This document shows positions 15,305 through 40,733 of a DNA stretch of 48,627 bases, one piece after another. This stretch comes from Anaerolineales bacterium UBA3071 (GTDB taxonomy: Bacteria; Chloroflexota; Anaerolineae; UBA3071), in the NCBI GenBank assembly GCA_002366755.1, contig DFBV01000018.1:15508-64134 (forward strand), read 5' to 3'. Numbering within the stretch: position 1 is the first letter of the stretch; each line of letters opens with the position of its first letter. The notes under the pieces were generated by a model, which was not told where the DNA came from, ran no database searches, and saw nothing but the letters and a program-made list of their open reading frames with translations. The translations under genes and the position numbers were made by a program.

Positions 15305-15311
15305 GTCCCGC

Positions 15312-15340
15312 TTGCCTTTTTGGCTGTGTAGTGCTATACT
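15312..15340 (+). promoter_or_regulatory. Candidate promoter TTGCCT-17 nt-TATACT
   Basis: Hexamers at 15312-15317 and 15335-15340. Shares the GCTATACTAT context with the promoter at 5766. Confidence 0.35.
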
Positions 15341-15406
15341 ATTTGCAGTAGCTTTAGGGACGCTGCGACGAGTGCAAGCAAATGAATGAATGGAGGAATG
15401 AAAGCG

Positions 15407-15793
15407 ATGAGAACAGTGAAAGTAGTCAATGACCAAATCTCTTTGCCGCCCCCCGTTGCTAACTGGATCGGTGCTATGGATGAGCTTTCCTTGTTCATAG
15501 AGGGCGATACCCTGATCCTGAAGAAGATGCGTGTGCCCAGGCTATCCGAAATCGCTGCCCGTGCGCCGGAGGGTGATGAGGAAATACCCTTGGAAGAGAT
15601 TGTCGCTGAAGTGCATCGCTACCGACGAGAGAAGCGAGATGCTGGTCGTATGGGAACCAACTATAACATTAGACACAAAACTGTCAAGCCAGCTATTGCC
15701 CCAAGACAGTCTGTCCTTCCTCCAACCCCGCTTCGATCTCCACCCGCTCCTTGCTTTCGATGCCCAGGGTCACGTCCAGGCGGCGTTGCTTAG
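15407..15793 (+). CDS. AbrB/MazE/SpoVT-type antitoxin-like protein, orphan, with a read-through tail
   Basis: MRTVKVVNDQISLPPPVANW...EGDTLILKK swapped-hairpin motif, then EIVAEVHRYRREKR. GGAGGA SD 9 nt before ATG 15407. The 3' ~100 nt overlap the convergent HlyD gene, so the tail is probably degenerate. Confidence 0.55.
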   Translation: MRTVKVVNDQISLPPPVANWIGAMDELSLFIEGDTLILKKMRVPRLSEIAARAPEGDEEIPLEEIVAEVHRYRREKRDAGRMGTNYNIRHKTVKPAIAPRQSVLPPTPLRSPPAPCFRCPGSRPGGVA

Positions 15794-25657: not shown

Positions 25658-25692
25658 GGAGGGAGACAGCCCCCATAAGGCTGTCTCCCTCC
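25658..25692 (-). terminator. 13-bp hairpin between precursor and maturase genes (attenuator-type)
   Basis: GGAGGGAGACAGC-loop-GCTGTCTCCCTCC, followed on the minus strand by GATTTCAGTG. Confidence 0.55.
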
Positions 25693-25759
25693 TGCATACA
25701 ACCTTTGACTAATTCAAGGTCGTCGCCGTATGGCATGCTCACTCAGGCTGGACTTCTCC

Positions 25760-26104
25760 TCAGTCGCAATAATAGTCATCCTCGCAGTCCCACTGCCAAG
25801 GTGGCCCGTGGCCAGTGAGATACCGATGGCATGTCTTCTGGTAAGTGCAGCCAAAGATGGGCGTGCCATTGCGGTTCACGAAGAGCTGTCGGTCGGGGTC
25901 GTAGTGGCCATCAAGAACCAACGGCTCTGCCTCACTTGTCTGAGCGAACAGCATGCCGAAGGGGACTTCTTCCCCATTCCAATTCAATCGGGTGCAGTTG
26001 CTCTCAGTTACCAGCACAGATGTTCTAGAAAAAGTGCCTTCTACTGCTGGATTTCGCGTAGATTCTCCGCACGAATCTGCCCAAAATCCGGCAAGACAGT
26101 GCAT
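25760..26104 (-). CDS. Candidate RiPP precursor peptide ending ...GCTYQKTCHRYLTGHGPPWQWDCEDDYYCD
   Basis: Only ORF directly upstream of and co-oriented with the ATP-grasp gene. C-terminus is rich in T/K and D/E, with 4 Cys. Start uncertain (ATG 26104 or internal ATG 25954). Confidence 0.55.
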   Translation of the reverse strand: MHCLAGFWADSCGESTRNPAVEGTFSRTSVLVTESNCTRLNWNGEEVPFGMLFAQTSEAEPLVLDGHYDPDRQLFVNRNGTPIFGCTYQKTCHRYLTGHGPPWQWDCEDDYYCD

Positions 26105-26386: not shown

Positions 26387-29080
26387 TCATTCATCGCCCC
26401 ACATCTGATAGGCCGGGGCTACCTGCCTCGCGCAGGTCAGGGCCGTTTGACGAGGATCAGCTTCAACATCAGCACCATCGAAACACGCCAGATAGGCTGC
26501 CGCCTTCTCCTGCGCCGCTGTCAGGACGCTCTCTGTCTCTTCCCCTTGGGCTGCAGCGTCCACGGCTTGATAGAACCAATCGCTGGGAACCCATGTGCGG
26601 AATACATCTCTCAGACTGTTCACATGTATTGGGTTTTCAGGAGGGCTAAATTGATCGAGCGTGTGCAGAATCGCTGCCTGACGATCCTCGCCGACTCTGA
26701 TCCTGTAAGCATCAGACATAGCCACCTGGCGTCGTGCTGGTGTTACATAACCCCAAGCAGGCACGTTCTCATTGGAGAGAGGAATGAAGCGTTCGCTCAA
26801 ATAGGTGATCCAGGTCCAGCATCCCTGGATTTCCTCGGGAGTAGCCTGGCTGGAGATGAAGTAGGCCGTCCCGTAACCGAAGAAACCAGGGGAGCCCTGC
26901 TGTCCCGCCGGGAACGCTGTGTAGCCGATGTCGAAGGTCGGCCTTTCGTTCGGTGGAAATGTGATGTTGCTTTCCCACATGGCTGCACGCTCGCTCAGAA
27001 CCAGTTGCTCTGCTTCTTGCATCTCCTCGTAGCTAAACAGGCTCAAGCTGTACTGAGGTTTGATGCCATGCACTCGATGAAGGTCAACGTACCATTGTAC
27101 GGCGGCCACGCCCTGGGGATCGGTGAAACGAGGCTGAGGCTTATCGCCTGGCTCCCATGCCTCTGCGCCGTGCCATCTCATGATGCTGCCTAAAATCGTC
27201 CCTTCGTTTCGGGCTACGTAGGCATAGCGCTCGTCAGCCCCGTTTTGTTCTGTCAGTGAGAGGCTGAATTGGAGAAATTCGTCCCAATCCCAGTCCAACG
27301 GGGGATAGGGCTGTCCAAGGCCATCGAATAGATCTCGGTTGTAGGCAATTAAGTACACATAGACCCAGGCAGGAAGACCGAGGACTCGACCATCACGAAA
27401 CAAGGGCTGGCGAGATACTTCGAAAAAGTCCTCTGGAGAAAGATTGGGATCACTATCAATCAGCGGCGTCAGATCCAAGAGTACTTGTCGATCAACCATG
27501 TCTATGTGCCAGCTTCCCTCGAAGCAGGGGGCCCGGCGGGCTATGGACTCGTGTTGCGGCCAACGGAAGACGGTTTGTGATGGCGCGTGGAGTTCCACAT
27601 TGACGACGATCTCGGGATGTTCCTGTAGAAAATCCTCGGCCAGTAGCAAGTAGGGTTCCACGTCCTCGCTAACCAGAAAATCAATCTCGATCCCTCCTCC
27701 CGCCAGCGTTGGCCCCGGCTCAGGCTCTCGGACGACGACGGGCTGAACATTGAGGTTGACCTGTTGCTTAACCGCCGCGGCAAGCTGGTCCATGACCCGT
27801 GCCTGAGCTTCGGCCAATGCCGCTTCTACAGGCTCCTGCTCGACGAGGACGGCCTTCAATACCGCGTCCAACCCCTGCCGAACAGGACGGGCCAGACTGG
27901 CATCGCCCAAGCGATCGTCGAGGGGAGGGCTGAAGGCACTTACATTGTCGAACACCCAGCGGAAAGCGGCAGCCACGTCGGGGTGCAGTCGTTCCCAGGC
28001 ATCACTGGCCTTGGCAACAGAGCGGCGCGGCGGCAAGTTGTTGGGACTGTAAAGCACGCCGAGAGGAGGAACATCCTGATAGCTGAGCCAGGAGAGCCAG
28101 CGCCACGCTTCCTGGGGATGCTGGGTGCCGCCGCTGATCATGTAGCCTTTATACTCGATGTAACGGTTCGCCTCGGACGATTGCGGATAGGGCACAAAGC
28201 CGAGATCACGCGAGGAGAACTCGAGGCGATCCATGTCACTCGACAACCCGCCCCACATGGCGACCTTGCGAGCATCAATCAGGTTGCGCTCTTCCTGCCA
28301 GCGAGAACTAAAGCTCAGGCCTTCCAAAACTGGCGCCACCTGATGGACGAGGAATAAGTTCGCATACCACTCTAGAGCGGCAACCATTTGGCTATCGGTC
28401 AGATTGACGCGGGGTGGCACATCCATCTCCAGGATGTCTCCCGCCTCGGCCAGCAACCAGTACCTGGTGTGGCGCTGCTGAGGCAGGAAACCATAGCGCC
28501 GATCGCTCGGGCTATCGGCTGAAACGTAGGTGAGACGCTGAGCCGCCTGCAAGAACTCGTCCTTGGTCCATCCTGGCCGAGGGTAGGGCACGTTAGCCGC
28601 ATCCAGGATCTCCTTGTCATACAAGATGCCCCAAAGGTAGAGAGGGCCAGGGAGCCGGACGATGCGGCCTGTTGCATCTGTGGTCAGCGCGCCGGGGAAG
28701 AAATCATCCTGGTTGAAGCCACGATCGGAGTCGATGAACAGCTTCAAGTCGAGGTAATAGTCCTGCCCCTGGTACCGGGCCGGGATTTGCTGGTACACCG
28801 TGTCCGCTAGCTGTGCAATCTGACGGGGGTAGTCGTCTGGCCACTGCGATCGGGGTCCAAGTTCATTGGTCAAGGAAACGATCTGGATGGAGATACCTGG
28901 GTTCTCCTCCTCAAACTGCTTGGCAAGTTCCAGATAAGCAACCTGTTCGCGGTCTTCGACTGCGAACGTAACAACGGTGGGCTCCAGGTTGTCGAGATCG
29001 TGTTGGGGAGCTGGGCTAGAGGTACAACCCACCACTAGCAGGGTGAGGATCAAGAGTGAGCACGCAAGTCTTGTCTTCAT
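26387..29080 (-). CDS. Double solute-binding-protein lipoprotein (two tandem family-1 SBP domains), paralog 1
   Basis: Lipobox LLVVGC after MKTRLACSLLILT (AAGGAG SD). Two SBP_bac_1/8-like halves. Conserved C-terminal Cys pair. Confidence 0.8.
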   Translation of the reverse strand: MKTRLACSLLILTLLVVGCTSSPAPQHDLDNLEPTVVTFAVEDREQVAYLELAKQFEEENPGISIQIVSLTNELGPRSQWPDDYPRQIAQLADTVYQQIPARYQGQDYYLDLKLFIDSDRGFNQDDFFPGALTTDATGRIVRLPGPLYLWGILYDKEILDAANVPYPRPGWTKDEFLQAAQRLTYVSADSPSDRRYGFLPQQRHTRYWLLAEAGDILEMDVPPRVNLTDSQMVAALEWYANLFLVHQVAPVLEGLSFSSRWQEERNLIDARKVAMWGGLSSDMDRLEFSSRDLGFVPYPQSSEANRYIEYKGYMISGGTQHPQEAWRWLSWLSYQDVPPLGVLYSPNNLPPRRSVAKASDAWERLHPDVAAAFRWVFDNVSAFSPPLDDRLGDASLARPVRQGLDAVLKAVLVEQEPVEAALAEAQARVMDQLAAAVKQQVNLNVQPVVVREPEPGPTLAGGGIEIDFLVSEDVEPYLLLAEDFLQEHPEIVVNVELHAPSQTVFRWPQHESIARRAPCFEGSWHIDMVDRQVLLDLTPLIDSDPNLSPEDFFEVSRQPLFRDGRVLGLPAWVYVYLIAYNRDLFDGLGQPYPPLDWDWDEFLQFSLSLTEQNGADERYAYVARNEGTILGSIMRWHGAEAWEPGDKPQPRFTDPQGVAAVQWYVDLHRVHGIKPQYSLSLFSYEEMQEAEQLVLSERAAMWESNITFPPNERPTFDIGYTAFPAGQQGSPGFFGYGTAYFISSQATPEEIQGCWTWITYLSERFIPLSNENVPAWGYVTPARRQVAMSDAYRIRVGEDRQAAILHTLDQFSPPENPIHVNSLRDVFRTWVPSDWFYQAVDAAAQGEETESVLTAAQEKAAAYLACFDGADVEADPRQTALTCARQVAPAYQMWGDE

Positions 29081-29099
29081 GATTGCTCCTTGCGACAAA

Positions 29100-29186
29100 C
29101 TATCGGGAGAAGGTTTCGTTGAGGGTGTAACCCTGGCCATCGGGCGAGCCGTGCCGGTTGTAGCGGCCCTTGAAGTAGGTGAGCAT
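29100..29186 (-). CDS. Possible 28-aa peptide MLTYFKGRYNRHGSPDGQGYTLNETFSR
   Basis: GAGGAAGGG SD 5 nt before the ATG. Occupies the same position (just 5' of an SBP gene) as the other small peptide genes. Could instead be a degraded relic. Confidence 0.25.
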   Translation of the reverse strand: MLTYFKGRYNRHGSPDGQGYTLNETFSR

Positions 29187-29221
29187 GTTTCCCTTCCTCA
29201 ACGGCAGACCCAGCAGGCTCA

Positions 29222-29435
29222 AATCAAAAAGCGCCAATCTCTCAAGGCACAGGCGTGCCCTGAGAAATCGGCGCTCTTCGCGGAGGCCAAACCACCTTTT
29301 CGCTGTGAATTATGGCGGGCTGTTTCCTTCTCTCTCTCTCTCTCTCTTCAAGAACATCTTATCCTCCCCGAACTTCCCATCAGGCACCACTTCGTGGTCT
29401 TGGCCGGTACAATCGTTGCATGGTAATTCTACCAC
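29222..29435 (-). promoter_or_regulatory. ~200-nt leader, copy A: SD-uORF, (GA)n tract, 20-bp terminator hairpin plus U tract
   Basis: About 85 percent identical by eye to 40533-40733. uORF at 29357..29310 (MFLKREREREGNSPP). Terminator at 29226-29275. Confidence 0.65.
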
Positions 29436-29454
29436 AGCTCTCGTGGTTTGTCAA
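29426..29454 (-). promoter_or_regulatory. Sigma70-type promoter TTGACA-17 nt-TAGAAT driving leader A
   Basis: On the minus strand, TTGACA is at 29454..29449 and TAGAAT at 29431..29426, with a 17-nt spacer. Confidence 0.6.
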
Positions 29455-29518
29455 ATCCGCTTTGCCCGTGGTGACGGAAATTCTAAGGTTCTGCAGCCGG
29501 GCTGGCGGGGCAAACGGC

Positions 29519-29553
29519 GGCAAATGGAAAGCCCCTCGCGGATGCACGAGGGG
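29519..29553 (-). terminator. Terminator-like hairpin with conserved 23-mer, after SBP paralog 2
   Basis: Minus strand reads CCCCTCG-tgcatc-CGCGAGGGG CTTTCCATTTGCC. The 23-mer GGCAAATGGAAAGCCCCTCGCGG recurs at 36803. Confidence 0.5.
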
Positions 29554-29607
29554 CTCAGTGTCGCTTCGGGTAACACTGAGCGACTCAGCCTTTTGTCGGA
29601 TCCGAAA

Positions 29608-32136
29608 TCACGGTGCGTCCACCTCTTGGAAGCAGGCGTCGGCGCTCGCCCGCTCTTCCAGGTCAGGGCGCTGCCGCAGGCAGTTCAAGTAGGCTTCGGC
29701 TTTTCCTTGCGCTTGGCTCAGCGCGGCCTGGGCGCCGGCACCGTGCCAGACGATCTCTTGGGCGGCCTGTATCAGCCAGGTGTAGGCCTTCTTGGACCCG
29801 GGCACCCCTTCCAGGTCGCGGAAGACGTCGGTATGTTGATATGCCAGCGATTCCAGGTAGGCAGCCTGGGCTTCCTCCCCCACGTATGCACGGAATTCGT
29901 CAGAGGCCACCAGTGAGCGACGGGCCGGAAGACCATCCTGCGGGATATGGTCCGAGACGAACTTCAGCCATTCCCAGCAGGCCTCGACGTGGGGGGTGTT
30001 GGCGGCGATGTAATAAGCCATGACCATGCTGCGAGGAGCAACGGGCCGACTGCCCCTGGGCAAAGGAGCAGCGCCGATGGAGCGTCCTTGGTACCTGGCC
30101 CACTCCATCCCCACTGACATGGATGACCGGATCCACATCCCGACCCTTCCGCTGTGGATCAGGCTATAATTCAGATCGTACAACTCGTCGTAGCCACCCG
30201 ACCCCGCTTCCAGAGCGGGAGCGACGCCGTCGGTCACCAGGCCAGCCAGTTGCTGTGCTGCTACCACCACGTCCTGCGTGTCGAAGCGGAAACCGGTCGG
30301 CGTTCCCGGGTTGTCCACCAGCGTCCCTGCCATCGCCTCCAGCAGGAATGCCAGGCTGGTGCCCGGCCATAGGACAACGCCATAGCGCTGCTCAGCGCCC
30401 TCCCCGCCACTCAGTTTCCTGGCCGCCACCAGCCAATCGTCCCACGTCCAGCCCGCTGCCGGGAAGAGGCCGGTCTCGTCGAAGAGTGCCTTATCGTAGT
30501 AAAGCACATCCACTGCGACCTGAGCGGGGAGCCCCCACAGGTCATTTTGATAGCGTACCCGCTCCAACACCTGGGGGTCGTAATCATCAAGGGGAAACCC
30601 GGGGTCGGTTTCAATCAAGGGCTGCAGGTTGAGCACACTCTGGCGCGTCTCCTCGGCGAGCGAGGCAGCGGTGAGGATACAGTCGGCGTGGCTGACCGCG
30701 ATCAGCGCCGCCAGGGTATGGTCTTGAGCAGAGAACTCCTCCGCGCCGCGCACCACCACTTCGATCTCCGGGTGGGTCTCGTGGAAGGCTTGGGCCAGCG
30801 CCTCGTATGTAGACCGGTTCCAAACGGGGACGAAGGTGATCGTATCTTTGCCCGGTGGTGCTGGTGTGGGTAAGGGAGCGATGGTAGGCTCTGGAGCCGG
30901 GGTGGCCTGCGCCAGCGCCTTCTGCTGGGCAGCCGACATCGCGGCTTCTACTGCCTCGCCGGCGAAAATCTGGTCGAGGGCCTGGGAGAGCCACACGCGC
31001 ACCATAACCGGCCGGACGGGGGGCAGGGCATGCTCCACCGCGTACTGAAAGGGGGCCAGGGCCTCTGCCCCGGCTGCGGTGGCGAGGGCGGATTCGAGGG
31101 TCAGGCTGCGCCGGGCTGGAAGGAGATCGGGCGGGGCGGCCTGCCGGCTGAGGAACTGTAACCAGCGCCAGGCTGCTTCCGGATGGGAAGTGCCGGCGCT
31201 GATGAAATAACCGTACACGTCCATCAGCGGACCTTTCCCCGGCAAGGGCGCGACCCGCAGAGAGGGACGATCCCGGACTGCCGCAGCCCACGAGCTGGCA
31301 AGGCCCACCGCCATCGCCGCTCGGCCCTCGAGCAGCGGGGCCAGCAGAGACTCCCCTTCTGCCTGGACCGGGTTGAGCATCACGCCGTGGGTCAGAGCCA
31401 GGTCGGCGTACCACTGCACCGCTGCCACCGTGCGGGGGTCATCCAGCATCGGGCGCGGCGGCTCCACCGAGGGGTCCACGATCTGCGCTCCCTGCACTTC
31501 GATCACTGATTCGAGACCCCCTCCCAGGAGGTCAGCGAAGCCGTAGCGCACGACCTGTCCTCCCTCTCGCTGCGTGAGGCGCTGCGCCTGGCTCAGGAGG
31601 TCATCCCAGGTCCAGCCCGCGGTGGGATACACCATCCCCGCATCGTCGAAAGCGGCCGGGTCGTAGAAGACGACGAGAGGGTCCACCCCGGCCGGCAGGC
31701 CCCACGTACCCTCCTGCCAGCGGAAGCGCTCCAGCAGGCCGGGGAGGAAATCTGTCTCGTCTGGCTCCCCGTCGGCCTCGAGAAACGGCGCTAGGTCGAG
31801 CAGCAGGCCAGATGGTCCGACCTCAACGGCGCCCTCATAAACGATAAAGGTGTCGGCGCTGGAGGCCAGTTGTCGCAGGGGAGTGGATCGCTCCACAGGC
31901 ACAATCTGTACTTCCAGGTCAGGGTGGGCATCGTGAAAAGCGTCGGCAACGGCCTGGTAGATCATCTTGTCGTCCATGGGGCAGGCGAAGGTGAGTCTGG
32001 TCAGATTGCCCACATGAGCAGCGGTCGGCGTTTTTCCTGGGGTGGTGCAGGCTCCCAGGGTGGCAATGAGCAGCACCAGCGACAAACTTAGCCTGCCCGC
32101 TCGCTGAGAAAAAGAACGCACTGTGCGGTCTGGCAT
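29608..32136 (-). CDS. Double solute-binding-protein lipoprotein, paralog 2
   Basis: MPDRTVRSFSQRAGRLSLSLVLLIATLGAC lipobox. Two SBP halves joined by a Pro/Thr/Ala linker. Confidence 0.8.
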   Translation of the reverse strand: MPDRTVRSFSQRAGRLSLSLVLLIATLGACTTPGKTPTAAHVGNLTRLTFACPMDDKMIYQAVADAFHDAHPDLEVQIVPVERSTPLRQLASSADTFIVYEGAVEVGPSGLLLDLAPFLEADGEPDETDFLPGLLERFRWQEGTWGLPAGVDPLVVFYDPAAFDDAGMVYPTAGWTWDDLLSQAQRLTQREGGQVVRYGFADLLGGGLESVIEVQGAQIVDPSVEPPRPMLDDPRTVAAVQWYADLALTHGVMLNPVQAEGESLLAPLLEGRAAMAVGLASSWAAAVRDRPSLRVAPLPGKGPLMDVYGYFISAGTSHPEAAWRWLQFLSRQAAPPDLLPARRSLTLESALATAAGAEALAPFQYAVEHALPPVRPVMVRVWLSQALDQIFAGEAVEAAMSAAQQKALAQATPAPEPTIAPLPTPAPPGKDTITFVPVWNRSTYEALAQAFHETHPEIEVVVRGAEEFSAQDHTLAALIAVSHADCILTAASLAEETRQSVLNLQPLIETDPGFPLDDYDPQVLERVRYQNDLWGLPAQVAVDVLYYDKALFDETGLFPAAGWTWDDWLVAARKLSGGEGAEQRYGVVLWPGTSLAFLLEAMAGTLVDNPGTPTGFRFDTQDVVVAAQQLAGLVTDGVAPALEAGSGGYDELYDLNYSLIHSGRVGMWIRSSMSVGMEWARYQGRSIGAAPLPRGSRPVAPRSMVMAYYIAANTPHVEACWEWLKFVSDHIPQDGLPARRSLVASDEFRAYVGEEAQAAYLESLAYQHTDVFRDLEGVPGSKKAYTWLIQAAQEIVWHGAGAQAALSQAQGKAEAYLNCLRQRPDLEERASADACFQEVDAP

Positions 32137-32163
32137 TTGTACACCCCTCTCACCATAACCATT

Positions 32164-32200
32164 GAGATGAAGCCTCCAGTTCACGCTGAGGCTTCATCTC
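32164..32200 (-). terminator. Perfect 13-bp hairpin between small peptide gene and SBP paralog 2
   Basis: GAGATGAAGCCTC-11 nt-GAGGCTTCATCTC. Confidence 0.45.
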
Positions 32201-32223
32201 GACTGTAGACACAAACAACAGGT

Positions 32224-32421
32224 TCAGCAAGGGCCGGGCCAGTCCCCCAGGCGGAACTCGCAGTAGAGGTCGCAGCTACTGCCTGGTGGGTTGCAGTCCG
32301 GATGGTTGACACAGTGGTAGCACCAGTACTCCCAGTGTTGCTGGGTCTCGTATACCTGGCGCGGCCACAAAGTTACATTTTGAAAACACAGAATAGGACA
32401 CAGATTTTCACAGATGAACAC
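32224..32421 (-). pseudogene. Cys/aromatic-rich peptide (paralog of 44112-44336) whose 5' part is replaced by a MITE-like insertion
   Basis: ...HWEYWCYHCVNHPDCNPPGSSCDLYCE... aligns to WCYYCCNHPDCLPYNCCDLFCE. There is no signal peptide, and the N-terminal 18 codons lie inside the AT-rich element. Confidence 0.5.
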
Positions 32422-32512
32422 AGATCAGGCTGCATTGCTGGCGAAAATCGAGAAAAATCCGTAAAAATCAGTGTCAATCAGTGTTAATCTGTGTCCCATA
32501 AAATGTAACCTT
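32369..32512. mobile_element. AT-rich ~140-bp MITE-like element with terminal inverted repeats and 10-bp-phased internal repeats
   Basis: AAAGTTACATTTT...GGACACAGATT versus AATCTGTGTCC...AAAATGTAACCTT. CACAGA occurs at 32387, 32399, 32409 and 32419. ATC(A/T)GTGT(C/T) occurs at 32467, 32477 and 32487. Confidence 0.55.
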
Positions 32513-32638
32513 ATGCCCGTCATCAGTATATATGTGGGGTCATGTAGCGTCTCTCGCGCCGCCGGTTAATGGCCATATCCGTGACAAATGACCCACTAGC
32601 AAGCTCAGGCTCAGTTTTCATCCGTCAAGGTCTTGCCC

Positions 32639-35224
32639 TCACCAGGACTCATAGTCTGGATCTACCTCCTGAGCGCAGGTCTCGCGCAGTTCACCGTCGT
32701 ACTCGCTCGCGGTGACCCGCCCTCCCAGGCAGGCCACGAAAGCCTCCGCCTTGGCCTGGGCCTCGGCCAGGGCTTCTTCCACCTCAGCCCCCTCCATCAC
32801 CCGATCAAAGGCTTCGTAGAACCAGTACCGACGAACCGTGTACACCCAGGGATATTCCTCGTACACGGGATTTACGCTCCCGACACTGCGTTCCAGCGCG
32901 AATTGGAAAGTCGCCAGAGCTTCTTCCCCCACTCGCTGCTGATACTCTGGTGTCTCCATCAAGGAACGCCGTGGGGGAACCCCTTGAACCACTGCGAGCT
33001 GGCCGGTCAGGAACTTGATCCACTGCCAACAGGCTTCTGGGTAGGGTGAGTTGACCGAGATTACGTAAGCGACGATCTTGTTTTGGTTCATTTTCCCCTG
33101 ACCCAGGGGCAAGGGGGCCATACCGACGCGGAAGGGGAAAGCCTGGGCAGGCATATTGCCGGGATACTCGGCCCACATAGCCACCCGGCCTGTGGATACC
33201 ATGTCCCGCTGCCTTTGAAGATGCGCATCTCGATCCCGAAAGTAGTCTTTGATGTAGAGGGGGGGCATCACACCGTGGACCAGGGCCAAGTCGGCGTACC
33301 AGCGCACTCCCTCAACCATTGCCGGGGTGTCCAACTGAGGTCGTGGGGGCCGGGTGGACACGTCCGCCACAGTAGCGCCGTGCTGTCCAAGGAAGAACAG
33401 CAGATCATAGCACACCGGGTCGAGAGGTATGTAGCCGTACTGTTTGCTCTCCCCTTCTTCTTCTCTGGTCAGGGCTACGGCCTTTTCCAGGAAGTCGTCC
33501 AAATCCCAACCCGGCTGGGGATATGCCACGCCTGCCGCGTCGAAGAGGTCCTGGTGGTAATACATCACTTTCACGTCGCCGTCAGCCGGCAGGCCCAGGA
33601 GATCCCCTTGCCAGCGCCAGGTCTCCAGGAACCCGGGATAGAAATCGTCCAGGGGTAAGTCCTGGTCGGCGTCCACGAGAGGCTGCAGGTCGAGGACGTG
33701 CTGGCGATGCTCCGGTACGTAAGGGGTCGTATCGAAAGCGGTAAAGCAATCACAGGCTTCAGCCCAATAGGGAACCCCCCACTGCTCCGGCACTGTCACC
33801 TCCACCATGATCTCGGGATGGTCATCATGAAACGCTTCGGCCAGGGCATGGTAGGGAGCCGTCTCGCCGCGCCCACAGAAGGTGATGGTGACTTCCTCAC
33901 CAGTTGCCCTCTCTGGCTTCGGCGTGGCCACGGCCACGGGTGTCGCTGGGGTGACCTGCTGGGCCTCTTGCGCCGCAGCCAGAGCCTGCGCCTGGGCCTC
34001 GGCCAGGGCCTCCTCCACACCTCGTTCTCCGGCGAAGATGGCGCCCAAAGCTGTCAGGAGTGGCATATCCAGTGACAGCCCCGCAGGCACCTCCATCTGA
34101 AATTTCTCCAGGACGTAGCGGTAGACCGCAGCCGTCTCCTCGTCCAACGAGGCCCAAACGTCCACAGCCCCGGCCAGCGAGCGGCGCGGCGGCACAGTCC
34201 CTTCCTCAGTGGCCAGGGGCTGACGGGTCAGAAAAGTCAGCCAGAGCCAGCTCTCCTGCGGATGGGCAGTCCCGGCGCTCATGGCGTAGCCCGCCGCCTG
34301 TTTCCAGCCCACGATGGCCTTCCCCTCGGGCAGCGGCGCTACGCCCAGGTCAGGATAATACGGCATGTAGTCGCCGAGTTGGTCGGAGTAGCCGGGCCAC
34401 ATGGCCGCCTTGCCGTCCTGGATCAGCTCCACCAGCCGCACGGTCTTTTCGAGGCGGGGCGTGACGCCCTGGCGGGTCAGGTCGGTGTACCAGTTGACGG
34501 CTTCAGCCATGGCTGGATCGTCCAACCGGGGAAGCGGCGGGGTCGTCGTCTCATCCGTCCAGGTACCGGCGCGGCCCAGGATCAGGGCTATTGCCGCGCG
34601 CGGCCAGGGATTGATGAAGCCGTAGCGCAGCGTCTGGTCCCCCTCTCGCACGGTCAACTGCTGTGTCACCTGGGTGAAGTCCTCGTAACTCCAACCGGGC
34701 TGGGGCGGAGCGATGCCAGCCTGGTCGAAGGCGGCTTTATCGTAAAAGATCAAGGCCAGGGTCGTGCGCACAGGCAGAACCCAGGTGCCGCCGTCCCAGC
34801 GGAACTGCTCCAGCAGGCCGGGGTAAAAATCTTCGGCCTCGAAGGTTGGGTCGGCTTCCAGGAGAGGGGTCAGGTCCCGCAGCAGACCCCGCCGCGTGTC
34901 CTGGGGACGGATTAGACCTGCTGGACCGGTGAACGTATCAGCCGCTGTCGCCAGCTTGCTTAAGATATCTCGGTGCTCAGTTCCCAGGATCGCATTCTCC
35001 GACAGCAGCCGCACGGAGATGTGAGGATGGGTTTTGTGAAAACGCTCGGCCAGCCGCTCGTACTGGGGAAGATCCCAATCGTTGACGGCGAAGGTGATGG
35101 TTACCTGCTGGGCGGGCGCAGGGGTCGGCGTGGGTGTAACTTGCGAGGAACAGGCCGCCACCAGTATGACTAAAAGCATCCTTGGGAGTAGACGTTGCAA
35201 AGATCTCGACGGTATCACTTTCAT
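32639..35224 (-). CDS. Double solute-binding-protein lipoprotein, paralog 3
   Basis: GGAAGGAG SD. MKVIPSRSLQRLLPRMLLVILVAAC lipobox. Two SBP halves. Confidence 0.8.
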   Translation of the reverse strand: MKVIPSRSLQRLLPRMLLVILVAACSSQVTPTPTPAPAQQVTITFAVNDWDLPQYERLAERFHKTHPHISVRLLSENAILGTEHRDILSKLATAADTFTGPAGLIRPQDTRRGLLRDLTPLLEADPTFEAEDFYPGLLEQFRWDGGTWVLPVRTTLALIFYDKAAFDQAGIAPPQPGWSYEDFTQVTQQLTVREGDQTLRYGFINPWPRAAIALILGRAGTWTDETTTPPLPRLDDPAMAEAVNWYTDLTRQGVTPRLEKTVRLVELIQDGKAAMWPGYSDQLGDYMPYYPDLGVAPLPEGKAIVGWKQAAGYAMSAGTAHPQESWLWLTFLTRQPLATEEGTVPPRRSLAGAVDVWASLDEETAAVYRYVLEKFQMEVPAGLSLDMPLLTALGAIFAGERGVEEALAEAQAQALAAAQEAQQVTPATPVAVATPKPERATGEEVTITFCGRGETAPYHALAEAFHDDHPEIMVEVTVPEQWGVPYWAEACDCFTAFDTTPYVPEHRQHVLDLQPLVDADQDLPLDDFYPGFLETWRWQGDLLGLPADGDVKVMYYHQDLFDAAGVAYPQPGWDLDDFLEKAVALTREEEGESKQYGYIPLDPVCYDLLFFLGQHGATVADVSTRPPRPQLDTPAMVEGVRWYADLALVHGVMPPLYIKDYFRDRDAHLQRQRDMVSTGRVAMWAEYPGNMPAQAFPFRVGMAPLPLGQGKMNQNKIVAYVISVNSPYPEACWQWIKFLTGQLAVVQGVPPRRSLMETPEYQQRVGEEALATFQFALERSVGSVNPVYEEYPWVYTVRRYWFYEAFDRVMEGAEVEEALAEAQAKAEAFVACLGGRVTASEYDGELRETCAQEVDPDYESW

Positions 35225-35284
35225 TTCATGCTCCTTCCATTGTGTCCGGCTAACCGATCTGAGGTTGCGGACGTCAATCTTATG

Positions 35285-35316
35285 GAAGAGAGAGCCCACA
35301 AAGGAACTCTCTCTTC
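35285..35316 (-). terminator. Perfect 10-bp hairpin after the His-repeat peptide gene
   Basis: GAAGAGAGAG-12 nt-CTCTCTCTTC. Confidence 0.45.
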
Positions 35317-35329
35317 TGTGGCAATGTCA

Positions 35330-35530
35330 CTACTCGCAAACATCTGTGTGCTGATTGGTGTGGTAGTTATTATGGATGTTGTCATGAACACACGCTTCAG
35401 CCACACTTGCCGTGAGCACCATCCCCAGCACGCTGGCAGTCAGCGCTGCTCCCGTCACCACTGCCGCCTTGCGCCCGATGTTGCCCTCTTCGAGTACAAT
35501 GAAGTCGGTCACCTTCTTTGGCACGTTCAT
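35330..35530 (-). CDS. 66-aa candidate RiPP precursor / membrane-anchored peptide with C-terminal C-V-(HDNI)(HNNY)(HTNQ)(HTDV)-C-E
   Basis: GGAAGGAGG SD. Lies 100 nt downstream of and co-oriented with the radical SAM/SPASM gene. Central hydrophobic helix, then four H-x-(N/D)-x units flanked by Cys. Confidence 0.65.
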   Translation of the reverse strand: MNVPKKVTDFIVLEEGNIGRKAAVVTGAALTASVLGMVLTASVAEACVHDNIHNNYHTNQHTDVCE

Positions 35531-35633
35531 CCTGTTTCACCTCCTTCCTGTGTGGGTTTTGTGCTGGATCCGAACCTTTGATATCCATCCAATATCCATC
35601 ACCTCCTTCTCCCGACGGCAATTGGGCATCCCT

Positions 35634-36761
35634 CTACACCCAACTGTTCAAAATGGCTGCCTCCTCACGATTGAGGAGTTTCCTGAACAGGTGGGGGATC
35701 ATCTCCCTGTAGATCTGACATTCGAAGTTGAGGGGAATGTTGGGAATGGGGCTGCCGTGCTGGTTGATGCCCCGCGCCACGCAGTAGCCACAATACGGTC
35801 CGAAGGGGCAAGTCTGACATTCTGGCAACGTCTCGGCGGCCAGAGTGCGCAGGGCCATAGCCGTGTCCGACGTGAAGACCTCGTCGTAGGTGTCGCTCAA
35901 GACGTTGCCCATGATCAACATCGGAACACTGCGACCACCATCGCAGCCGTGAATGGTGCCATTATGACCAACAATGACCTGCGATATACCACAACCGCAG
36001 GGCCGGCGCAGGCACATGTAGGCGTGCGCAGGGTTCAGCACGTTTCCCAGCAGATAGGCCGTCTTGCCCTCACGGAAGCTGTGGCCCCCGCGGTTCTTCT
36101 CCAGCACGTAGTCCAAAGTGCGCTTCCAGGCTCCGACGAACTGCTCCGGCGTCACGCCAACGTCGTAGCCCGACTCATAGGCCCGCCCTAGATAGTTCAC
36201 ATATCGCAAGTACAGAATATTCACGCCGCGCTCGATGTATTCATCAACGATCTCCCTCTCATGCCCCAGCCCGTTGACGGTGAAGGTGGGCAGGAAGGGC
36301 ACGAAGATGTCGTACTCCTCCTTGAGCTTCTCCGCCCAGCGCACGACGTCCTCGTAGGTCCCTCGCCCGCTGGGATAGACCCGCTGCCGGTCGTGCACCA
36401 GCGGTGGGCCATCGAGGGAGGAGCATAGCTTGACGTTGCCTCGCTCCTTGATGTCCTGAGCGATCTCGTCGCTCATCAGCGTAAGGTTGGAGACGATAGC
36501 GAAGCTGAGTTCGATACTCTCCGCCTCAGCCCGCTGCATGGCGTAGTCCATGGCCTTCTGAATCAGGTCGTAGCGCAGGAGAGGCTCGCCGCCCTGGAAC
36601 TCGATGCGCATCTGCTTGCGGCCCTGGCGGGGCACGGAGAAGAAGAAGTCCACGGTCTTGTAGAGCACCTCATCGTCCATGTCCCACTCCTTGCGGGAGA
36701 GCGACTGCGATTTGGCGTGGCAGTAGACGCAGGCCATGTTGCAGCGGTTGGTGGGCACCAT
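35634..36761 (-). CDS. Radical SAM enzyme with C-terminal SPASM domain (peptide-maturase type)
   Basis: CNMACVYC (CxxxCxxC) at the N-terminus. GGEPLL. C-terminal CGCG...C and CQTCPFGPYCGYC auxiliary-cluster motifs. The true start may be upstream (see findings). Confidence 0.85.
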   Translation of the reverse strand: MVPTNRCNMACVYCHAKSQSLSRKEWDMDDEVLYKTVDFFFSVPRQGRKQMRIEFQGGEPLLRYDLIQKAMDYAMQRAEAESIELSFAIVSNLTLMSDEIAQDIKERGNVKLCSSLDGPPLVHDRQRVYPSGRGTYEDVVRWAEKLKEEYDIFVPFLPTFTVNGLGHEREIVDEYIERGVNILYLRYVNYLGRAYESGYDVGVTPEQFVGAWKRTLDYVLEKNRGGHSFREGKTAYLLGNVLNPAHAYMCLRRPCGCGISQVIVGHNGTIHGCDGGRSVPMLIMGNVLSDTYDEVFTSDTAMALRTLAAETLPECQTCPFGPYCGYCVARGINQHGSPIPNIPLNFECQIYREMIPHLFRKLLNREEAAILNSWV

Positions 36762-36802
36762 GATGAAGAGAGAAGGCGGCCGGTGCAGAAAGCCGTAGCG
36801 CT

Positions 36803-36837
36803 GGCAAATGGAAAGCCCCTCGCGGGCGGCACGAGGG
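36803..36837 (-). terminator. Terminator-like hairpin with the conserved 23-mer, after SBP paralog 4
   Basis: Same GGCAAATGGAAAGCCCCTCGCGG block as at 29519. Stem CCCTCG/CGAGGG. Confidence 0.45.
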
Positions 36838-36865
36838 TCTTGGCGACAGACATAAGCTCCTTACG

Positions 36866-39439
36866 TTATCCTCCTCCGTACGTCGCATCCACCTGTCTGG
36901 CGCAGGCATCGGCCCGCTCCTGATCATCCTCGATCTCACTGGCGGCCCAGCAGGCCACGTATGCCTCCGCCTTGGCCTGCGCTTCATCCAAAGCCATCTC
37001 CACCTCTATCCCTTGCGCGATGTCCAATAGCGCCTGACGGAAGCAAAGCCAGATTTGGTCGAACCACGGCGTCCTCTCGGACAGCTCGGGGGTCCGACTG
37101 TCGAAATACTCAACCGTCGCCCGATAAGCAGCCGCCACTTCGCCCCCCACGGCTTCTTCGAAGGCCGGGGAAGCCATGAGAGAGCGACGGGTGGGCAGCG
37201 AGATTCCGGCCGGCCGCTGCTCGGTCAGGTGGGCAAGCCACTCCCAGCACGTCTGAGGATGCTTCGTATTAGCTGAAATGAAGTAGCCGGATAAGTAAAA
37301 CTCAGCCGCCCCTTGAACCTCCCCCAAGGGTAGCGGTGCCATTCCCCACTGCACACCTCTGAATCGTTCCTGTTCCAGGCTCATCCCCATCCACATCGCC
37401 ACCCGCCCGCCACTGATGAGGAGAGCCCGCTGCCGGAAGGCTACAGCCCCTTCTTCTTCCCCTTCTGGCAGAAGGAGCACCGCACCTTTCTCGGCTAGGT
37501 CGAAGAATCTGCGCGCCGCCTCCACCACCTTGGGAGCGTTAAGAGTGGGGCAAGTGGGATGTTGGAGATCATCCACCAGGGAGCCCCCGTGGGCATAGAC
37601 GAAGGGAATAGCCTGGCTGGGCAGCGCAATGAAGCCATACTGTTTGGTTTCTCCCTCACCCTGGGTCAGACGAAGAGCCTTGTCGTAGAAATCGTCCCAC
37701 ATCCAACCAGCCTGGGGGTAGTCCACTCCAGCAGCGTCGAAGAGGTTTCGGTTGTAGAAGAGCACCTGAACCTGTATCGTGGCCGGAAGGGCATAGAGAT
37801 CGCCCTCCCAACGATAGGCGTCCAGCGCTCGGGGACAGAATCCATCCAGGGAAAAGGCGGGATCAGCTTCCAGGAGGGGTTGGAGGTTCAGGACGTGGGG
37901 CAGAGATTCCTCCGGCAAATCGCCCCAGAGGAAGCAATCGGTCTGAGTGGCCGTCTCGACAAAGGAAGATCGGGAGTCCCTGACCACAATCCTGATGTCT
38001 GGGCGTGCAGCAGTGAAGGAACGGGCCAACTCTCGATAGGGCAGGAACTCAGGGCCGTAGGCAAAGGCGATCTCCACTTCCTCCTTAGCTGCCGTTGGGG
38101 TGGCCATGACCACCGGCCGAGGAGGGGTCTGCATAACCTTAACCAACTGAGAGTGGTAGGCCATAGCCTCTGCCTGAGCCTGCGCCAAGGCTGCCTCGGC
38201 CGTCGCCTCCCCTCGAAGCACGGCGCGCAACGCCTGAGACAGCCATCCATACAGGCGGAAGGGGCGTAACGGAGGCATGGCGTGCTCCAGGGCGTAGAGA
38301 TAAGCGGCAGCGTTTTCCTCGCCCATTTGCTCCCGGAAGCCCGAAGTTTCGAACACCGATCGGCGTGCAGGGAGTTCGTTCCTCAGCCGGCGGGTCGTCA
38401 GGAAATGGATCCATTCCCAGCTCTCATGAGGGTGAGCCGTAGCGCCACTAATGTAGTAGCAAGAGAGGAAAACAGCATCAGTTGGCTGTTTTCCCTCGGG
38501 GAAAGGCACAAAGCCCAGGCGCATCTCTTGGGCCGCCTTGGAAAGCGAGTCTGGACGCCTCGGCTCCATCCACATGGCGACGTGCCCCTCCAGAGGCAGC
38601 TCGAATAGAGTGGAGAACTCCATTCCGGAAGTATCGGCCACCACTTGATGGCGAAGGGTCAGGTCGGCAAATTCCCGTAACGCCGTCGCTACCCTCGGAT
38701 CGTCCAACGTAGGGCGGATCGGGTCGGCGAAAGGATCCGCCAGAGACCCGCCATGTCCGTAGATATAGGAAACCAGGAACTGGGGACTAGTGGGGAGAAA
38801 AGCATATTTGACCCCTCGATGCCCGGCCAGGGACTGGGCTTTGGCCAGGAAATCATCCCATGTCCAGCCGATTTGTGGATAGCTCATGCCCGCCTGGTCG
38901 AAAAGGTCCTTGTTGTAAGCGATGAGCATGAGGTTCACCTGGTCAGGCAAGCCCCATAGCTCTTCCCGCCAGGTAAGGCGCTCCAGAAGGCCGGGGAAGA
39001 AATCATCGGCCTTGAAAGTGGGATCAGCCTTGGCCAGGGGATCCAGGTTCAGCATGTAGCCCTGCGCAATCCCATTCCAGGGCTCGAGCGTTAAGGCAGT
39101 GAAGGTATCGGCGGCTGAGGCCAGCAGCCGTATATCTTCCCCTGGCTCGGCCGGCTGGTCCGATTGCAGGTCAAGGATCTCCTCGTAGCTCTTCAACTGG
39201 ATGGTGATGCCCGGATGGGCCTGGGTGAATTCCTCGGCCAGGGGTTCGTAAACTTGGAACGTGCCCTTATAGCAGGCAAACGTGACGGTGACGGGAGCAG
39301 TGGTAGGTAAGGGTGGGAAAGGGCTTGCTCTGACGCCCGCTGGGGCGGTAGGCTCTTCAATCCGTTCAGGGATCGTTGGTGGCCTACAATGAACCAACAG
39401 CAGTGCTGGCAGGACGAATAGAGCAAAGATTTTTCTCAT
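36866..39439 (-). CDS. Double solute-binding-protein lipoprotein, paralog 4
   Basis: AAGGAGG SD. MRKIFALFVLPALLLVHC lipobox. Two SBP halves. Confidence 0.8.
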   Translation of the reverse strand: MRKIFALFVLPALLLVHCRPPTIPERIEEPTAPAGVRASPFPPLPTTAPVTVTFACYKGTFQVYEPLAEEFTQAHPGITIQLKSYEEILDLQSDQPAEPGEDIRLLASAADTFTALTLEPWNGIAQGYMLNLDPLAKADPTFKADDFFPGLLERLTWREELWGLPDQVNLMLIAYNKDLFDQAGMSYPQIGWTWDDFLAKAQSLAGHRGVKYAFLPTSPQFLVSYIYGHGGSLADPFADPIRPTLDDPRVATALREFADLTLRHQVVADTSGMEFSTLFELPLEGHVAMWMEPRRPDSLSKAAQEMRLGFVPFPEGKQPTDAVFLSCYYISGATAHPHESWEWIHFLTTRRLRNELPARRSVFETSGFREQMGEENAAAYLYALEHAMPPLRPFRLYGWLSQALRAVLRGEATAEAALAQAQAEAMAYHSQLVKVMQTPPRPVVMATPTAAKEEVEIAFAYGPEFLPYRELARSFTAARPDIRIVVRDSRSSFVETATQTDCFLWGDLPEESLPHVLNLQPLLEADPAFSLDGFCPRALDAYRWEGDLYALPATIQVQVLFYNRNLFDAAGVDYPQAGWMWDDFYDKALRLTQGEGETKQYGFIALPSQAIPFVYAHGGSLVDDLQHPTCPTLNAPKVVEAARRFFDLAEKGAVLLLPEGEEEGAVAFRQRALLISGGRVAMWMGMSLEQERFRGVQWGMAPLPLGEVQGAAEFYLSGYFISANTKHPQTCWEWLAHLTEQRPAGISLPTRRSLMASPAFEEAVGGEVAAAYRATVEYFDSRTPELSERTPWFDQIWLCFRQALLDIAQGIEVEMALDEAQAKAEAYVACWAASEIEDDQERADACARQVDATYGGG

Positions 39440-39559: not shown

Positions 39560-39868
39560 TCAAGTACCACATGGGAAGTGCCGGTCCTCCCAATTGCCAC
39601 AATAGCAGCGCCATTTCCACCCGCTCTCGCATTTCATCCAGAATTCGTCTCCCTCATGCCAAGTCCAACCGTCGATCCCCCAACGACATGACCAGCAAGC
39701 ATCGGGGTATCTCACTATACAGCCTTCGCAGTCCTCAAGGGGCTGCACTGGGCCGGCATTTGCCATAGAGGGCGTGAAGAAACTCACCGCCGCCAACACC
39801 AGCGATGCGACGAGCATTGTGACCAAGCCACCCATGACCACCCTTTGCATTTTACCATACTTCACCAT
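39560..39868 (-). CDS. Secreted Cys/Trp-rich small protein (about 64-aa mature part, 8 Cys, 8 Trp)
   Basis: AGGAGG SD 8 nt before ATG 39868. Signal peptide ...FFTPSMANA, then GPVQPLEDCEGC...WKWRCYCGNWEDRHFPCGT. Confidence 0.65.
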   Translation of the reverse strand: MVKYGKMQRVVMGGLVTMLVASLVLAAVSFFTPSMANAGPVQPLEDCEGCIVRYPDACWSCRWGIDGWTWHEGDEFWMKCESGWKWRCYCGNWEDRHFPCGT

Positions 39869-39957
39869 TTTTGTCACCTCCTATGCAGTTGAATTGATCG
39901 AGCGAAATGTCGGACTGTCCCACTCGTCTTTGCATCTATCACCCCCTTTCACTTCCG

Positions 39958-40515
39958 TCACTCGACTTCGGCCAGCTTTTTCAGTTGCCCCAATGAGTTG
40001 GCGAAGCCCCTGCTAACAACGACGCCACTTTCGTTGATGACGTATAAGAAGGGCGTGCCCGGCACCTTGTAATCCCGCGCCACCCCATCATCCCAGATCA
40101 GAACGGGGAAACCAAACCCTTGCTCCTCCACCAGTTGCTGGTTCTCCTCTACGGAGCCCCGCGAGATCATCACCACTTGCATTTCGTCCATTTCCTCGCT
40201 GAAGGTCTTCAAGTTGGGGGATAGTTCAGCGCAGGCCGGACATCGGGTGGAGGAGAAGACCAGCAACACTCCCTGCCCCGCAAAATCACCCAACGTGACC
40301 GTTTGACCCCTCACGTCGGGCAAGCTGAACTCTGGCGCTTTCGTGCCCTTCTCCAGGCCCGGCGGCTCGCTCACCGCCCCCAAGAACTCCAGCGCTGCTA
40401 CGACGTTATTCTGCAACTGGTTCATTCTGATGAAAAGGCCGATGATGGTCACCATCAACAGGATGACGATGCCCATCAGCATCAGGAGCAGAACGTTGGT
40501 CTTCGTTTCGTTCAT
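39958..40515 (-). CDS. TlpA/ResA-like membrane-anchored thiol-disulfide oxidoreductase
   Basis: N-terminal TM helix and redoxin fold with a CPAC active site (FSSTRCPACAEL). Start is ATG 40515 or GTG 40521. Confidence 0.8.
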   Translation of the reverse strand: MNETKTNVLLLMLMGIVILLMVTIIGLFIRMNQLQNNVVAALEFLGAVSEPPGLEKGTKAPEFSLPDVRGQTVTLGDFAGQGVLLVFSSTRCPACAELSPNLKTFSEEMDEMQVVMISRGSVEENQQLVEEQGFGFPVLIWDDGVARDYKVPGTPFLYVINESGVVVSRGFANSLGQLKKLAEVE

Positions 40516-40532
40516 GGGCACACCTTTGTCGG

Positions 40533-40733
40533 AATCAAAAAGCGCCGACCTCTCAAGGCACGAGCATGCCCTGAGACATCGGCGCTCTTCGCGGACGCCA
40601 AACCACCTTTTCGCTGTGAACTATGGCGAACTGTTCTCTCTCTCCGCAAGTGCATCTTATCCTCCCCGGACTTCCCACCAGACATCACTTTGTGGCCTTA
40701 GCCAGTATGATTGCTGCACAGTAATCCTACCAT
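40533..40733 (-). promoter_or_regulatory. ~200-nt leader, copy B, directly upstream of the TlpA-like gene
   Basis: Homologous to 29222-29435. A 47-codon uORF (40655..40512) reads through the terminator hairpin (40536-40585) and ends in ATGA on the TlpA start. The -35 region is replaced by foreign sequence. Confidence 0.65.

Follow-up and report, generated by a model that had tools for sequence, protein, structure and literature searches.

A stretch of 48,627 nucleotides from contig DFBV01000018.1 (assembly GCA_002366755.1) of Anaerolineales bacterium UBA3071, referred to here as the window, carries on its reverse strand an intact gene for a short precursor-like peptide and, 5' of it, a gene for a radical S-adenosylmethionine (radical SAM) enzyme with a SPASM domain that has lost its 5' end. 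Together they are probably the remnant of a system related to the His-Xaa-Ser (Hxs) family. All positions are those of the window, and (-) marks the reverse strand. The gene pair comprises the following parts.

35330..35530 (-), precursor-like peptide gene, 66 residues plus stop (MNVPKKVTDFIVLEEGNIGRKAAVVTGAALTASVLGMVLTASVAEACVHDNIHNNYHTNQHTDVCE), recovered by our own peptide hidden Markov model (HMM) at E 8e-30
35468..35530 (-), leader of the peptide, residues 1-21 (MNVPKKVTDFIVLEEGNIGRK), delimited by alignment of relatives; same architecture in HxsA3/HxsA4 peptides
35393..35467 (-), hydrophobic segment of the peptide, residues 22-46 (AAVVTGAALTASVLGMVLTASVAEA), with A-x-A at its end, from sequence and conservation
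35333..35392 (-), core of the peptide, residues 47-66 (CVHDNIHNNYHTNQHTDVCE), with four H-x-[DN] at spacing 4 and Cys on either side, from sequence
35634..36802 (-), 5'-truncated radical SAM/SPASM gene of the HxsB clade, corresponding to residues 91-479 of full-length relatives, from homology and domain scans
36720..36743 (-), CX3CX2C radical-SAM cluster motif (CNMACVYC), intact, from the invariant Cys columns

The earlier note on this DNA had described a 66-residue open reading frame (ORF) with a strong Shine-Dalgarno (SD) sequence 3' of a radical SAM/SPASM gene, and this is what is found: a GGAGGTG SD, read from the sequence, lies 9 nt 5' of the peptide ATG (35538..35544, -), and the ORF starts 103 nt past the stop codon of the enzyme gene. 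Also present are the four H-x-[ND]-x units with a Cys at either end, the peptide tail reading C-V-(H-x-[ND]-x)x4-C-E. Shuffling of the 20-residue core recreated the period-4 array in 2 of 200,000 trials and gave at least four H-x-[DN] motifs in 457 of 200,000. The core contains two Asp, one Glu and four His, is acidic to neutral, and has no H-x-S. The preceding hydrophobic segment is read as a membrane anchor or signal-like segment, with presumed topology and cleavage. In the leader, residues K6, V7, T8, D9, F10, I11, L13 and I18 are invariant in the alignment of relatives and G16, N17, G19, R20 and K21 nearly so; the leader is presumed to be the recognition element for an N-terminal domain of the enzyme that resembles the recognition elements (RREs) of maturases that act on peptides made by the ribosome and modified after translation (RiPPs). 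A Pfam scan of the window peptide gave no family match and no Flp/pilin match, and the pilin cleavage motif (G/XXXXEY or G/FTLIE) is absent; in the leader, a conserved E-x-G stands before basic residues instead.

In 30 database relatives of the peptide the N-terminal half is near-invariant (KKVTDFIxLExGNIGRK, then AAVVTGAALAASVLG..AEA), and the tails are hypervariable and rich in His, Cys, Asp, Asn, Tyr and Trp. No more than 52 cluster representatives came out of an exhaustive profile search at E <= 0.001; these differ greatly in their cores, some of which have Cys and no His, and the core of peptide p76 at one related locus (L090) has no Cys at all. Across 33 distinct related cores, compared with 2000 shuffles, H-x-[DN] was counted 123 times, with 33 expected (a count reached by none of the 2000 shuffles), H-x-S once against 8 expected, and the i/i+4 His pair (H-x-x-x-H) 46 times against 23 expected. 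The enrichment over these cores therefore identifies H-x-Asp/Asn as the family signature, and a search for such peptides beside homologs, as the earlier note had proposed, finds enzyme and peptide together. The strict period-4 array is a feature of the window peptide only, and neither the fourfold period nor the Cys pair, both pointed out in the note, is conserved among the cores of its relatives. Nor does the motif stand outside described families, as had been supposed: it is a variant of His-Xaa-Ser, a type that the note had itself listed, with a leader that matches HxsA3 and an architecture shared with HxsA3 and HxsA4. Against NCBIfam HxsA3 (NF038309, cutoff 65 bits) the window peptide scores 24 bits, with only the leader and hydrophobic part matching, and the peptides of relatives score 19-29 bits; as controls, a Butyrivibrio peptide is a true HxsA3 at 117 bits, and a true HxsA4 was recovered at 109 bits. 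Peptides directly 3' of distant HxsB genes (from DPANN archaea, candidate-phyla-radiation bacteria, Myxococcota, Butyrivibrio and Faecalibacterium) follow the same leader and hydrophobic plan, but carry period-3 H-x-S repeats.

Comparison of the window enzyme with the NCBIfam radical SAM/SPASM families gave HxsB (TIGR03978) as the top match, with 320 bits over profile positions 72-466, followed by PapB with 122 bits; the HxsB score is two to three times that of the next family and lies below the HxsB cutoff of 370 bits. Since full-length relatives (P0002, P0025 and P0046, with 326, 325 and 302 bits) also fall below this cutoff, the whole clade is a sub-threshold sister of HxsB. The comparison thus places the enzyme in a peptide clade, and with only 96 bits for anaerobic sulfatase maturase (TIGR03942, cutoff 349) the objection raised beforehand, that the enzyme might fall in a non-peptide clade, does not apply. 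For the window enzyme and its relatives the scores were 122-164 bits against PapB (cutoff 340), 93-115 bits against SCIFF maturase (cutoff 425), 66-84 bits against YhhB (cutoff 445) and 57-85 bits against GrrM/OscB (cutoff 310); XyeB and AmcB gave about 60 bits each (cutoffs 450 and 425). The triceptide, PapB, SCIFF, QhpD and anaerobic sulfatase maturase families were rejected on scores far under their cutoffs. The nearest database proteins are 74-83% identical and all about 479 aa long. The GTDB matches listed are all at 31-38% identity, and these HxsB-type relatives occur in DPANN archaea, candidate-phyla-radiation bacteria, Elusimicrobia, Myxococcota and Firmicutes, and a metagenome scan for enzyme relatives returned 3 short loci.

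The AlphaFold2 model of P0002 (predicted local distance difference test score, pLDDT, 94.3) has three strands and then three helices at residues 25-92, before the radical SAM core. When this model was used in Foldseek, the whole chain aligned to CteB (best match) and TigE, followed by anaerobic sulfatase maturase, ChlB and SuiB. We take CteB, TigE and SuiB to carry N-terminal RREs, and because of these matches the N-terminal domain of the intact 479-aa relatives, as modelled, is read as folded like an RRE and as leader-binding.

In the window, the radical SAM core and the SPASM domain are intact and the N-terminal 90 residues are absent; the relatives have all three parts. The following elements bear on this truncation.

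36803..36840 (-), hairpin element X' (CCCTCGTGCCGCCCGCGAGGG + GCTTTCCATTTGCC), shortly 3' of the stop codon of SBP-1 (the first of four solute-binding protein, SBP, genes described below) and abutting codon 91 of the radical SAM gene
36851..36862 (-), AAGGAG SD and ATG 36853, out of the radical SAM frame, opening a 96-aa overlapping ORF, read from sequence
29519..29555 (-), hairpin element X, 3' of the stop codon of SBP-3, a sequence repeat
29100..29186 (-), orphan 5' end belonging to an HxsB-like gene, with codons 1-28 followed by a stop (MLTYFKGRYNRHGSPDGQGYTLNETFSR); it shares 85% identity with the P0005 and P0007 N-termini
29190..29470 (-), leader region Y, 5' of the orphan 5' end, with promoter-like TTGACA-17-TAGAAT and a long untranslated stretch that ends in a hairpin, from sequence

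With codons 1-90 the gene has lost its start codon, the entire RRE-like domain and the first core beta-strand (modelled at residues 102-105 and cut if translation begins at M105). The longest conventional enzyme ORF begins with an internal Met codon (ATG 36761) that lacks an SD, and no ATG, GTG or TTG precedes it in the radical SAM frame. The span 35330-36853, which had been described as peptide plus enzyme gene, thus holds an intact peptide gene as stated, and an enzyme gene that is 5'-truncated; the proposed enzyme start at ATG 36853 has to be given up, as it lies in another frame, the segment 36803-36840 is a repeated intergenic hairpin, and homology begins at residue 91. The two hairpin elements share an exact repeat of 23 nt (36803-36825 and 29519-29541, after SBP-1 and SBP-3), and there is microhomology between the hairpin element and the radical SAM gene at the codon-91 junction. 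On this sequence evidence, element X' is the mark of the truncation junction; as the repeat element abuts codon 91 with microhomology, the true enzyme sequence begins at Q91. A tblastn search with the proteins of related locus L001 matched the window enzyme only from residue 79 on and matched residues 1-27 at 29186..29106, within the orphan 5' end, which lies 7.6 kb from the enzyme remnant. The leader region Y preceding the orphan, whose hairpin has 20 bp and a U-tract (29231-29274), looks like the original promoter and leader of the enzyme gene.

Region Y is duplicated at 40500-40780 (83% identity), 5' of a thioredoxin-like gene. The duplicated leader extends over about 230 nt, with an extended -10 (TGGTAGAAT) and, immediately ahead of the start codon, the hairpin and U-tract; the orphan radical SAM 5' end and SBP-4 follow one copy, and the thioredoxin-like gene follows the second. 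The element resembles a shared attenuator or cis-regulatory RNA; Rfam returned no family for it, and blastn did not detect it in relatives.

The JGI and Logan assemblies show the same arrangement of the locus, the JGI contig having 7 single-nucleotide polymorphisms in 21 kb, all far from it. An assembly chimera is unlikely, as the order agrees between the JGI and the Logan contig, and a sequencing frameshift joining ATG 36853 to the enzyme was rejected in view of the intervening repeat element, the homology from residue 91 and the identity of the two assemblies. A match of PRAAREGLSIC to the enzyme's PRNARDIATIHC was rejected as enzyme sequence, REGLSIC being encoded also by the same repeat after SBP-3; the resemblance may reflect the junction microhomology. 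A relative of 367 aa (P0017) was rejected as an independent truncation: it has the same sequence as P0023, which has a full-length start, over the shared residues, and is read as a gene-calling or assembly variant.

At the two loci whose enzyme is 83% identical to that of the window (L001 and L002), the gene order is response regulator, 479-aa radical SAM enzyme, 82-aa peptide, double SBP_bac_1 protein, the prepilin-type peptidase Peptidase_A24 (A24), HxsD-like protein, HlyD adaptor, 970-aa FtsX permease and ABC ATPase. Radical SAM, HxsD and A24 genes with one or two peptides were also found at L088, L090 and L092; each relative encodes one or two precursors, whose tails hold Cys and 2-6 His-x-Asp/Asn motifs. 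The HxsD-like proteins of relatives score 27 bits against TIGR03976 (cutoff 50), with precomputed matches to PF27806. The A24 proteins score above the Pfam cutoff, two of them with the archaeal A24 C-terminal domain, and both catalytic Asp motifs are readable. Over 89 HxsB-type loci our own HMMs detected HxsD in 57 and A24 in 39, usually in the order A24, HxsD, HxsB, peptide; a second radical SAM gene is uncommon, and none was found at L001, L088 or L092. At L090 (1-2851), two further radical SAM genes lie about 7 kb 5' of the HxsB-like gene, and the ORF of one of these two, coding for 536 aa, is matched by the HxsD-like HMM as well (E 2.5e-16), pointing to an HxsD-radical SAM fusion protein.

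The window itself gave no match at E <= 1 to our own HxsD and A24 HMMs (HxsD from four relatives) and none in tblastn with the A24 and HxsD proteins of L001, and family scans of its large ORFs gave one radical SAM gene only and no HxsC. The pairing of a radical SAM/SPASM enzyme with a precursor-like peptide, as claimed in the earlier note, holds, with co-occurrence in relatives and the HxsB match of the enzyme; a working pair in the window is doubtful, because the first 90 residues, HxsD and A24 are missing. The remaining genes with counterparts in the intact clusters are the following.

36866..39439 (-), SBP-1, 857 aa, two SBP_bac_1 domains, directly 5' of the truncated enzyme gene, 37% identical to the L001 SBP
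32639..35299 (-), SBP-2, double solute-binding lipoprotein, directly 3' of the peptide gene, start probably at 35224, from domain scan and synteny
29608..32184 (-), SBP-3, paralog, from domain scan
26387..29080 (-), SBP-4, paralog, likely start ATG 29080 after an AAGGAG SD, from domain scan and sequence
15693..17501 (-), HlyD-type adaptor, 59% identical to the intact-cluster adaptor, from tblastn
12437..15436 (-), FtsX/MacB-type permease, 999 aa, 77% identical to the L001 permease, from tblastn
10946-12013 and 10242-10949 (-), two ABC ATPase genes after the permease; ABC_tran also follows FtsX in L001

The placement of SBP-2 matches that in L001, L002 and L088, and in the closest relatives one SBP copy always lies directly after the peptide gene. 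SBP-4 starts 19 nt past the stop of the orphan radical SAM 5' end. The four tandem paralogs (26387-39439, -) are 857-917 aa long with two SBP_bac_1 domains and are 30-37% identical to the L001 homolog; a lipoprotein-type lipobox is present in at least three and a C-terminal Cys pair is conserved in all, and no ABC importer permease gene lies near them. The HlyD, FtsX and ABC genes persist about 9 kb past SBP-4, with unrelated genes between; the adaptor is probably a former cluster member now separated by these genes.

Upstream of SBP-1 (39560-40521, -), a 105-aa signal-anchored Trp-rich protein with ten Cys in its C-terminal part, for which no family match was found, adjoins a membrane-anchored MauD/ResA-like thioredoxin; these two genes come first in the operon, which continues through SBP-1 to the truncated radical SAM gene. 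IS1182/IS5-like transposase genes (DUF772, DDE) lie immediately 5' of this operon (40828-43356). With an insertion sequence (IS) near the window locus, and with an A24 gene interrupted by an IS and SBP fragments at L088, decay of these clusters seems to be common. Elsewhere in the window, an MvdD-type ATP-grasp gene (24584-25636) beside an ABC-ATPase fusion gene (22741-24690) and a small ORF just 5' of the ATP-grasp gene (25760-26104, -; ending in ...TYQKTCHRYLTGHGPPWQWDCEDDYYCD) appear to form a graspetide (microviridin-like) cluster of their own, precursor included (22741-26104, -). Tad/Flp-type pilus genes (CpaE/ParA-like ATPase, CpaF-type T2SSE ATPase, TadB/C-like T2SSF) are found at 1-5700 (+), and a prepilin peptidase was not detected in the window. 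Further genes encode a 968-aa fusion of a HAD hydrolase, an APH-type phosphotransferase and a streptomycin-type adenylyltransferase domain (18502-21408, -) and adenylosuccinate synthase (purA; 21427-22707, -), whose closest named relatives are only 43-48% identical and come from several phyla and whose best metagenomic match is 76% identical.

The systems closest in plan, HxsA3/HxsA4 with HxsB and HxsD (NF038309, NF038313, TIGR03978, TIGR03976), are defined bioinformatically; we found no experimental work on them and, in the literature searched, nothing on HxsA3, on HxsA4 or on A24 peptidases paired with radical SAM/SPASM enzymes. The peptides described here share with HxsA3/HxsA4 a basic start, the motif [DE]F[IL]xxE[ED]Gx[IV]x[KR][KQ], a hydrophobic segment, A-x-A and a His-rich repeat tail, and the loci share with those systems HxsB as the best family, an HxsD-like gene and often A24 beside the enzyme in relatives, and mostly a single radical SAM gene. 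They differ in their sub-cutoff scores (HxsB 302-326 against 370, HxsA3 19-29 against 65, HxsD 27 against 50), in cores with H-x-Asp/Asn and Cys at irregular spacing instead of tandem period-3 H-x-Ser, in the double SBP lipoprotein and MacB-type exporter added in the closest clade, and, for the window copy, in lacking the N-terminal domain of the enzyme, HxsD and A24.

Canonical HxsABCD (HXS) systems, which act against phage in Enterobacteria and 99.7% of which are found in Pseudomonadota (PMC13128918, Nat Commun 2026), also combine an HxsB-type radical SAM/SPASM enzyme and an HxsD-type partner with His-x-(small polar) repeats, on a substrate that is N-terminally processed and ends outside the cytoplasm, as would be the case here. 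In E. coli, deletion of hxsD stops cleavage of HxsA, and point mutations in conserved motifs of HxsD abolish defence (PMC13128918). The sole change reported for canonical HxsB/HxsC is +8 Da, of unsolved structure, on an SHRSS motif, and is attributed to an HxsC-HxsD complex (PMC13128918). Unlike these systems, the branch described here has no HxsC, its motif is H-x-D/N and not H-x-S, and its substrate is a peptide of 66-99 aa with a hydrophobic anchor, whereas HxsA exceeds 200 aa and carries a peptidoglycan-binding domain.

His triceptide synthases (HaaB, YhhB, HtkB) join His-C2 to the C-beta of the third residue of an aromatic-X-X motif (PMC11499958). H-x-[DN] fits this motif (four times in the window core), the enzymes belong to the same radical SAM/SPASM class, and ChlB is a structural match; the sequence relation of the enzymes is remote, and the precursors here differ in having a hydrophobic segment and Cys. 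With regard to SCIFF and ranthipeptide maturation, CteB is the best structural match, including its N-terminal domain, and PapB the second-best NCBIfam family. PapB links Cys to Asp, and the cores here hold both Cys and Asp/Asn. Their conserved motif is centred on His and is no CxxxD or SCIFF pattern, and the similarity to CteB is structural only.

We consider it probable that the locus is a partly deleted copy from an uncharacterised sister branch of the Hxs family, with a peptide that most likely stays unmodified. The H-x-D/N branch is then probably a new variant of this known, chemically unsolved family, and the window copy a remnant of it. As the RRE-like domain, the start codon, HxsD and A24 are gone, the peptide is most likely unmodified unless a second intact system elsewhere acts on it; loss of enzyme function in cis is what we infer as likely, with appreciable doubt. 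In intact relatives, the RRE-like domain would bind the peptide leader, and the enzyme, probably with HxsD, would modify the H-x-D/N sites using SAM-derived radicals. The most likely chemistry would be a cross-link of His to the residue two positions on, as in His triceptides; such a link from His to Asx (Asp or Asn) is the leading hypothesis, for an enzyme that is only remotely related to triceptide synthases. Cys-to-Asx thioethers would be the alternative. The peptide would then be processed and placed at or beyond the membrane, with the A24 peptidase, as synteny suggests, removing the leader.

Several observations weigh against the interpretation as a remnant. The retained 389 codons are free of stops and keep every invariant Cys, and the remnant has 6 private changes at otherwise invariant columns, compared with 0-10 in 15 relatives; with so few private changes, the gene either lost its 5' end recently or remains under selection. 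Nothing is missing from the peptide gene, which has a strong SD and a perfectly conserved leader. ChlB, of similar length (375 residues), has been crystallised with the leader of its substrate. A non-canonical start codon may be used, or an intact maturase copy may lie outside the window, and the JGI and Logan assemblies may stem from the same reads. As to the steps proposed for the intact relatives, the cross-link chemistry is one that we infer throughout, the +8 Da shift (PMC13128918) is the only change reported for canonical HxsB/HxsC, and removal of the leader by A24 is weakened by HxsA4-type loci, which keep the E-E-G motif with no A24 gene nearby.

Much of this would be accommodated if the pair worked as it is, in line with the earlier note, the RRE-less enzyme being made from a start at the internal Met or at a non-canonical codon and cross-linking the four H-x-N/D sites (or Cys to Asx) into a ladder-like RiPP. 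The open frame with all cluster ligands and no excess of private substitutions, the intact peptide with its strong SD, the exporter genes kept in the window, and shorter radical SAM maturases such as ChlB that bind a substrate leader are all consistent with it. We nevertheless regard a working pair as unlikely: the enzyme frame offers no start codon preceded by an SD, a start at M105 would cut the first core beta-strand (residues 102-105 of the model), the N-terminal domain is retained in every close relative, and the window lacks HxsD and A24; in E. coli, deletion of hxsD stops HxsA cleavage (PMC13128918). A wider form of this proposal, in which the branch makes an undescribed His-to-Asx radical-SAM cross-link in membrane-anchored RiPPs whose leader is cut by an archaeal-type A24 peptidase, and in which the window ladder peptide is still matured, whether by the RRE-less enzyme itself or through an intact copy at another place in the genome, seems to us improbable to a similar degree.

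The peptide could also act unmodified, as a small membrane-anchored protein whose external His/Asp/Asn/Cys tail binds metal (the earlier note had named metal binding as its alternative) or as a pilin-like surface element, its adjacency to the enzyme being historical. Its charged N-terminus, hydrophobic segment of about 25 residues and A-x-A motif would suit such a role, as would the i/i+4 His spacing enriched across the family, the preservation of the peptide gene beside a broken enzyme gene, and the Tad pilus genes within the window. However, family members adjoin an HxsB-type enzyme across relatives, a conserved leader with a hypervariable core is the RiPP pattern, no Pfam Flp/pilin match was obtained, and the Tad genes lie about 30 kb off, so that we hold this explanation to be quite unlikely. 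An anti-phage barrier like E. coli HxsABCD, in which matured and exported HxsA blocks entry of phage DNA, is very unlikely, although HxsB is the best family, an HxsD-like partner occurs in relatives, the peptides appear to be envelope-targeted and a defence role is published for canonical HXS (PMC13128918), since HxsC is absent from the window and from L001, L088 and L092, the peptide has no peptidoglycan-binding domain, its acidic to neutral core makes the electrostatic DNA binding proposed for basic HxS repeats unlikely, and all Hxs family scores lie below their cutoffs. A defence annotation from PADLOC was rejected, as it gives only generic viperin-level radical SAM similarity.

For the window locus as a probably decayed member of the Hxs sister branch, the practical meaning is one of caution: a peptide beside a decapitated enzyme gene is no ready-to-express pair, and the moderate interest of the locus sits mainly with its intact relatives and less with the window copy. 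HxsB-type enzymes are widespread. The branch described here, with Asp/Asn in place of Ser and without HxsC, suggests that HxsB alone, with HxsD, acts on His-x-(small polar) motifs. The recurrent link to archaeal-type A24 peptidases hints at an unusual mode of RiPP leader removal, and the branch offers simpler systems of two or three genes (e.g. L001) for working out the HxsB reaction.

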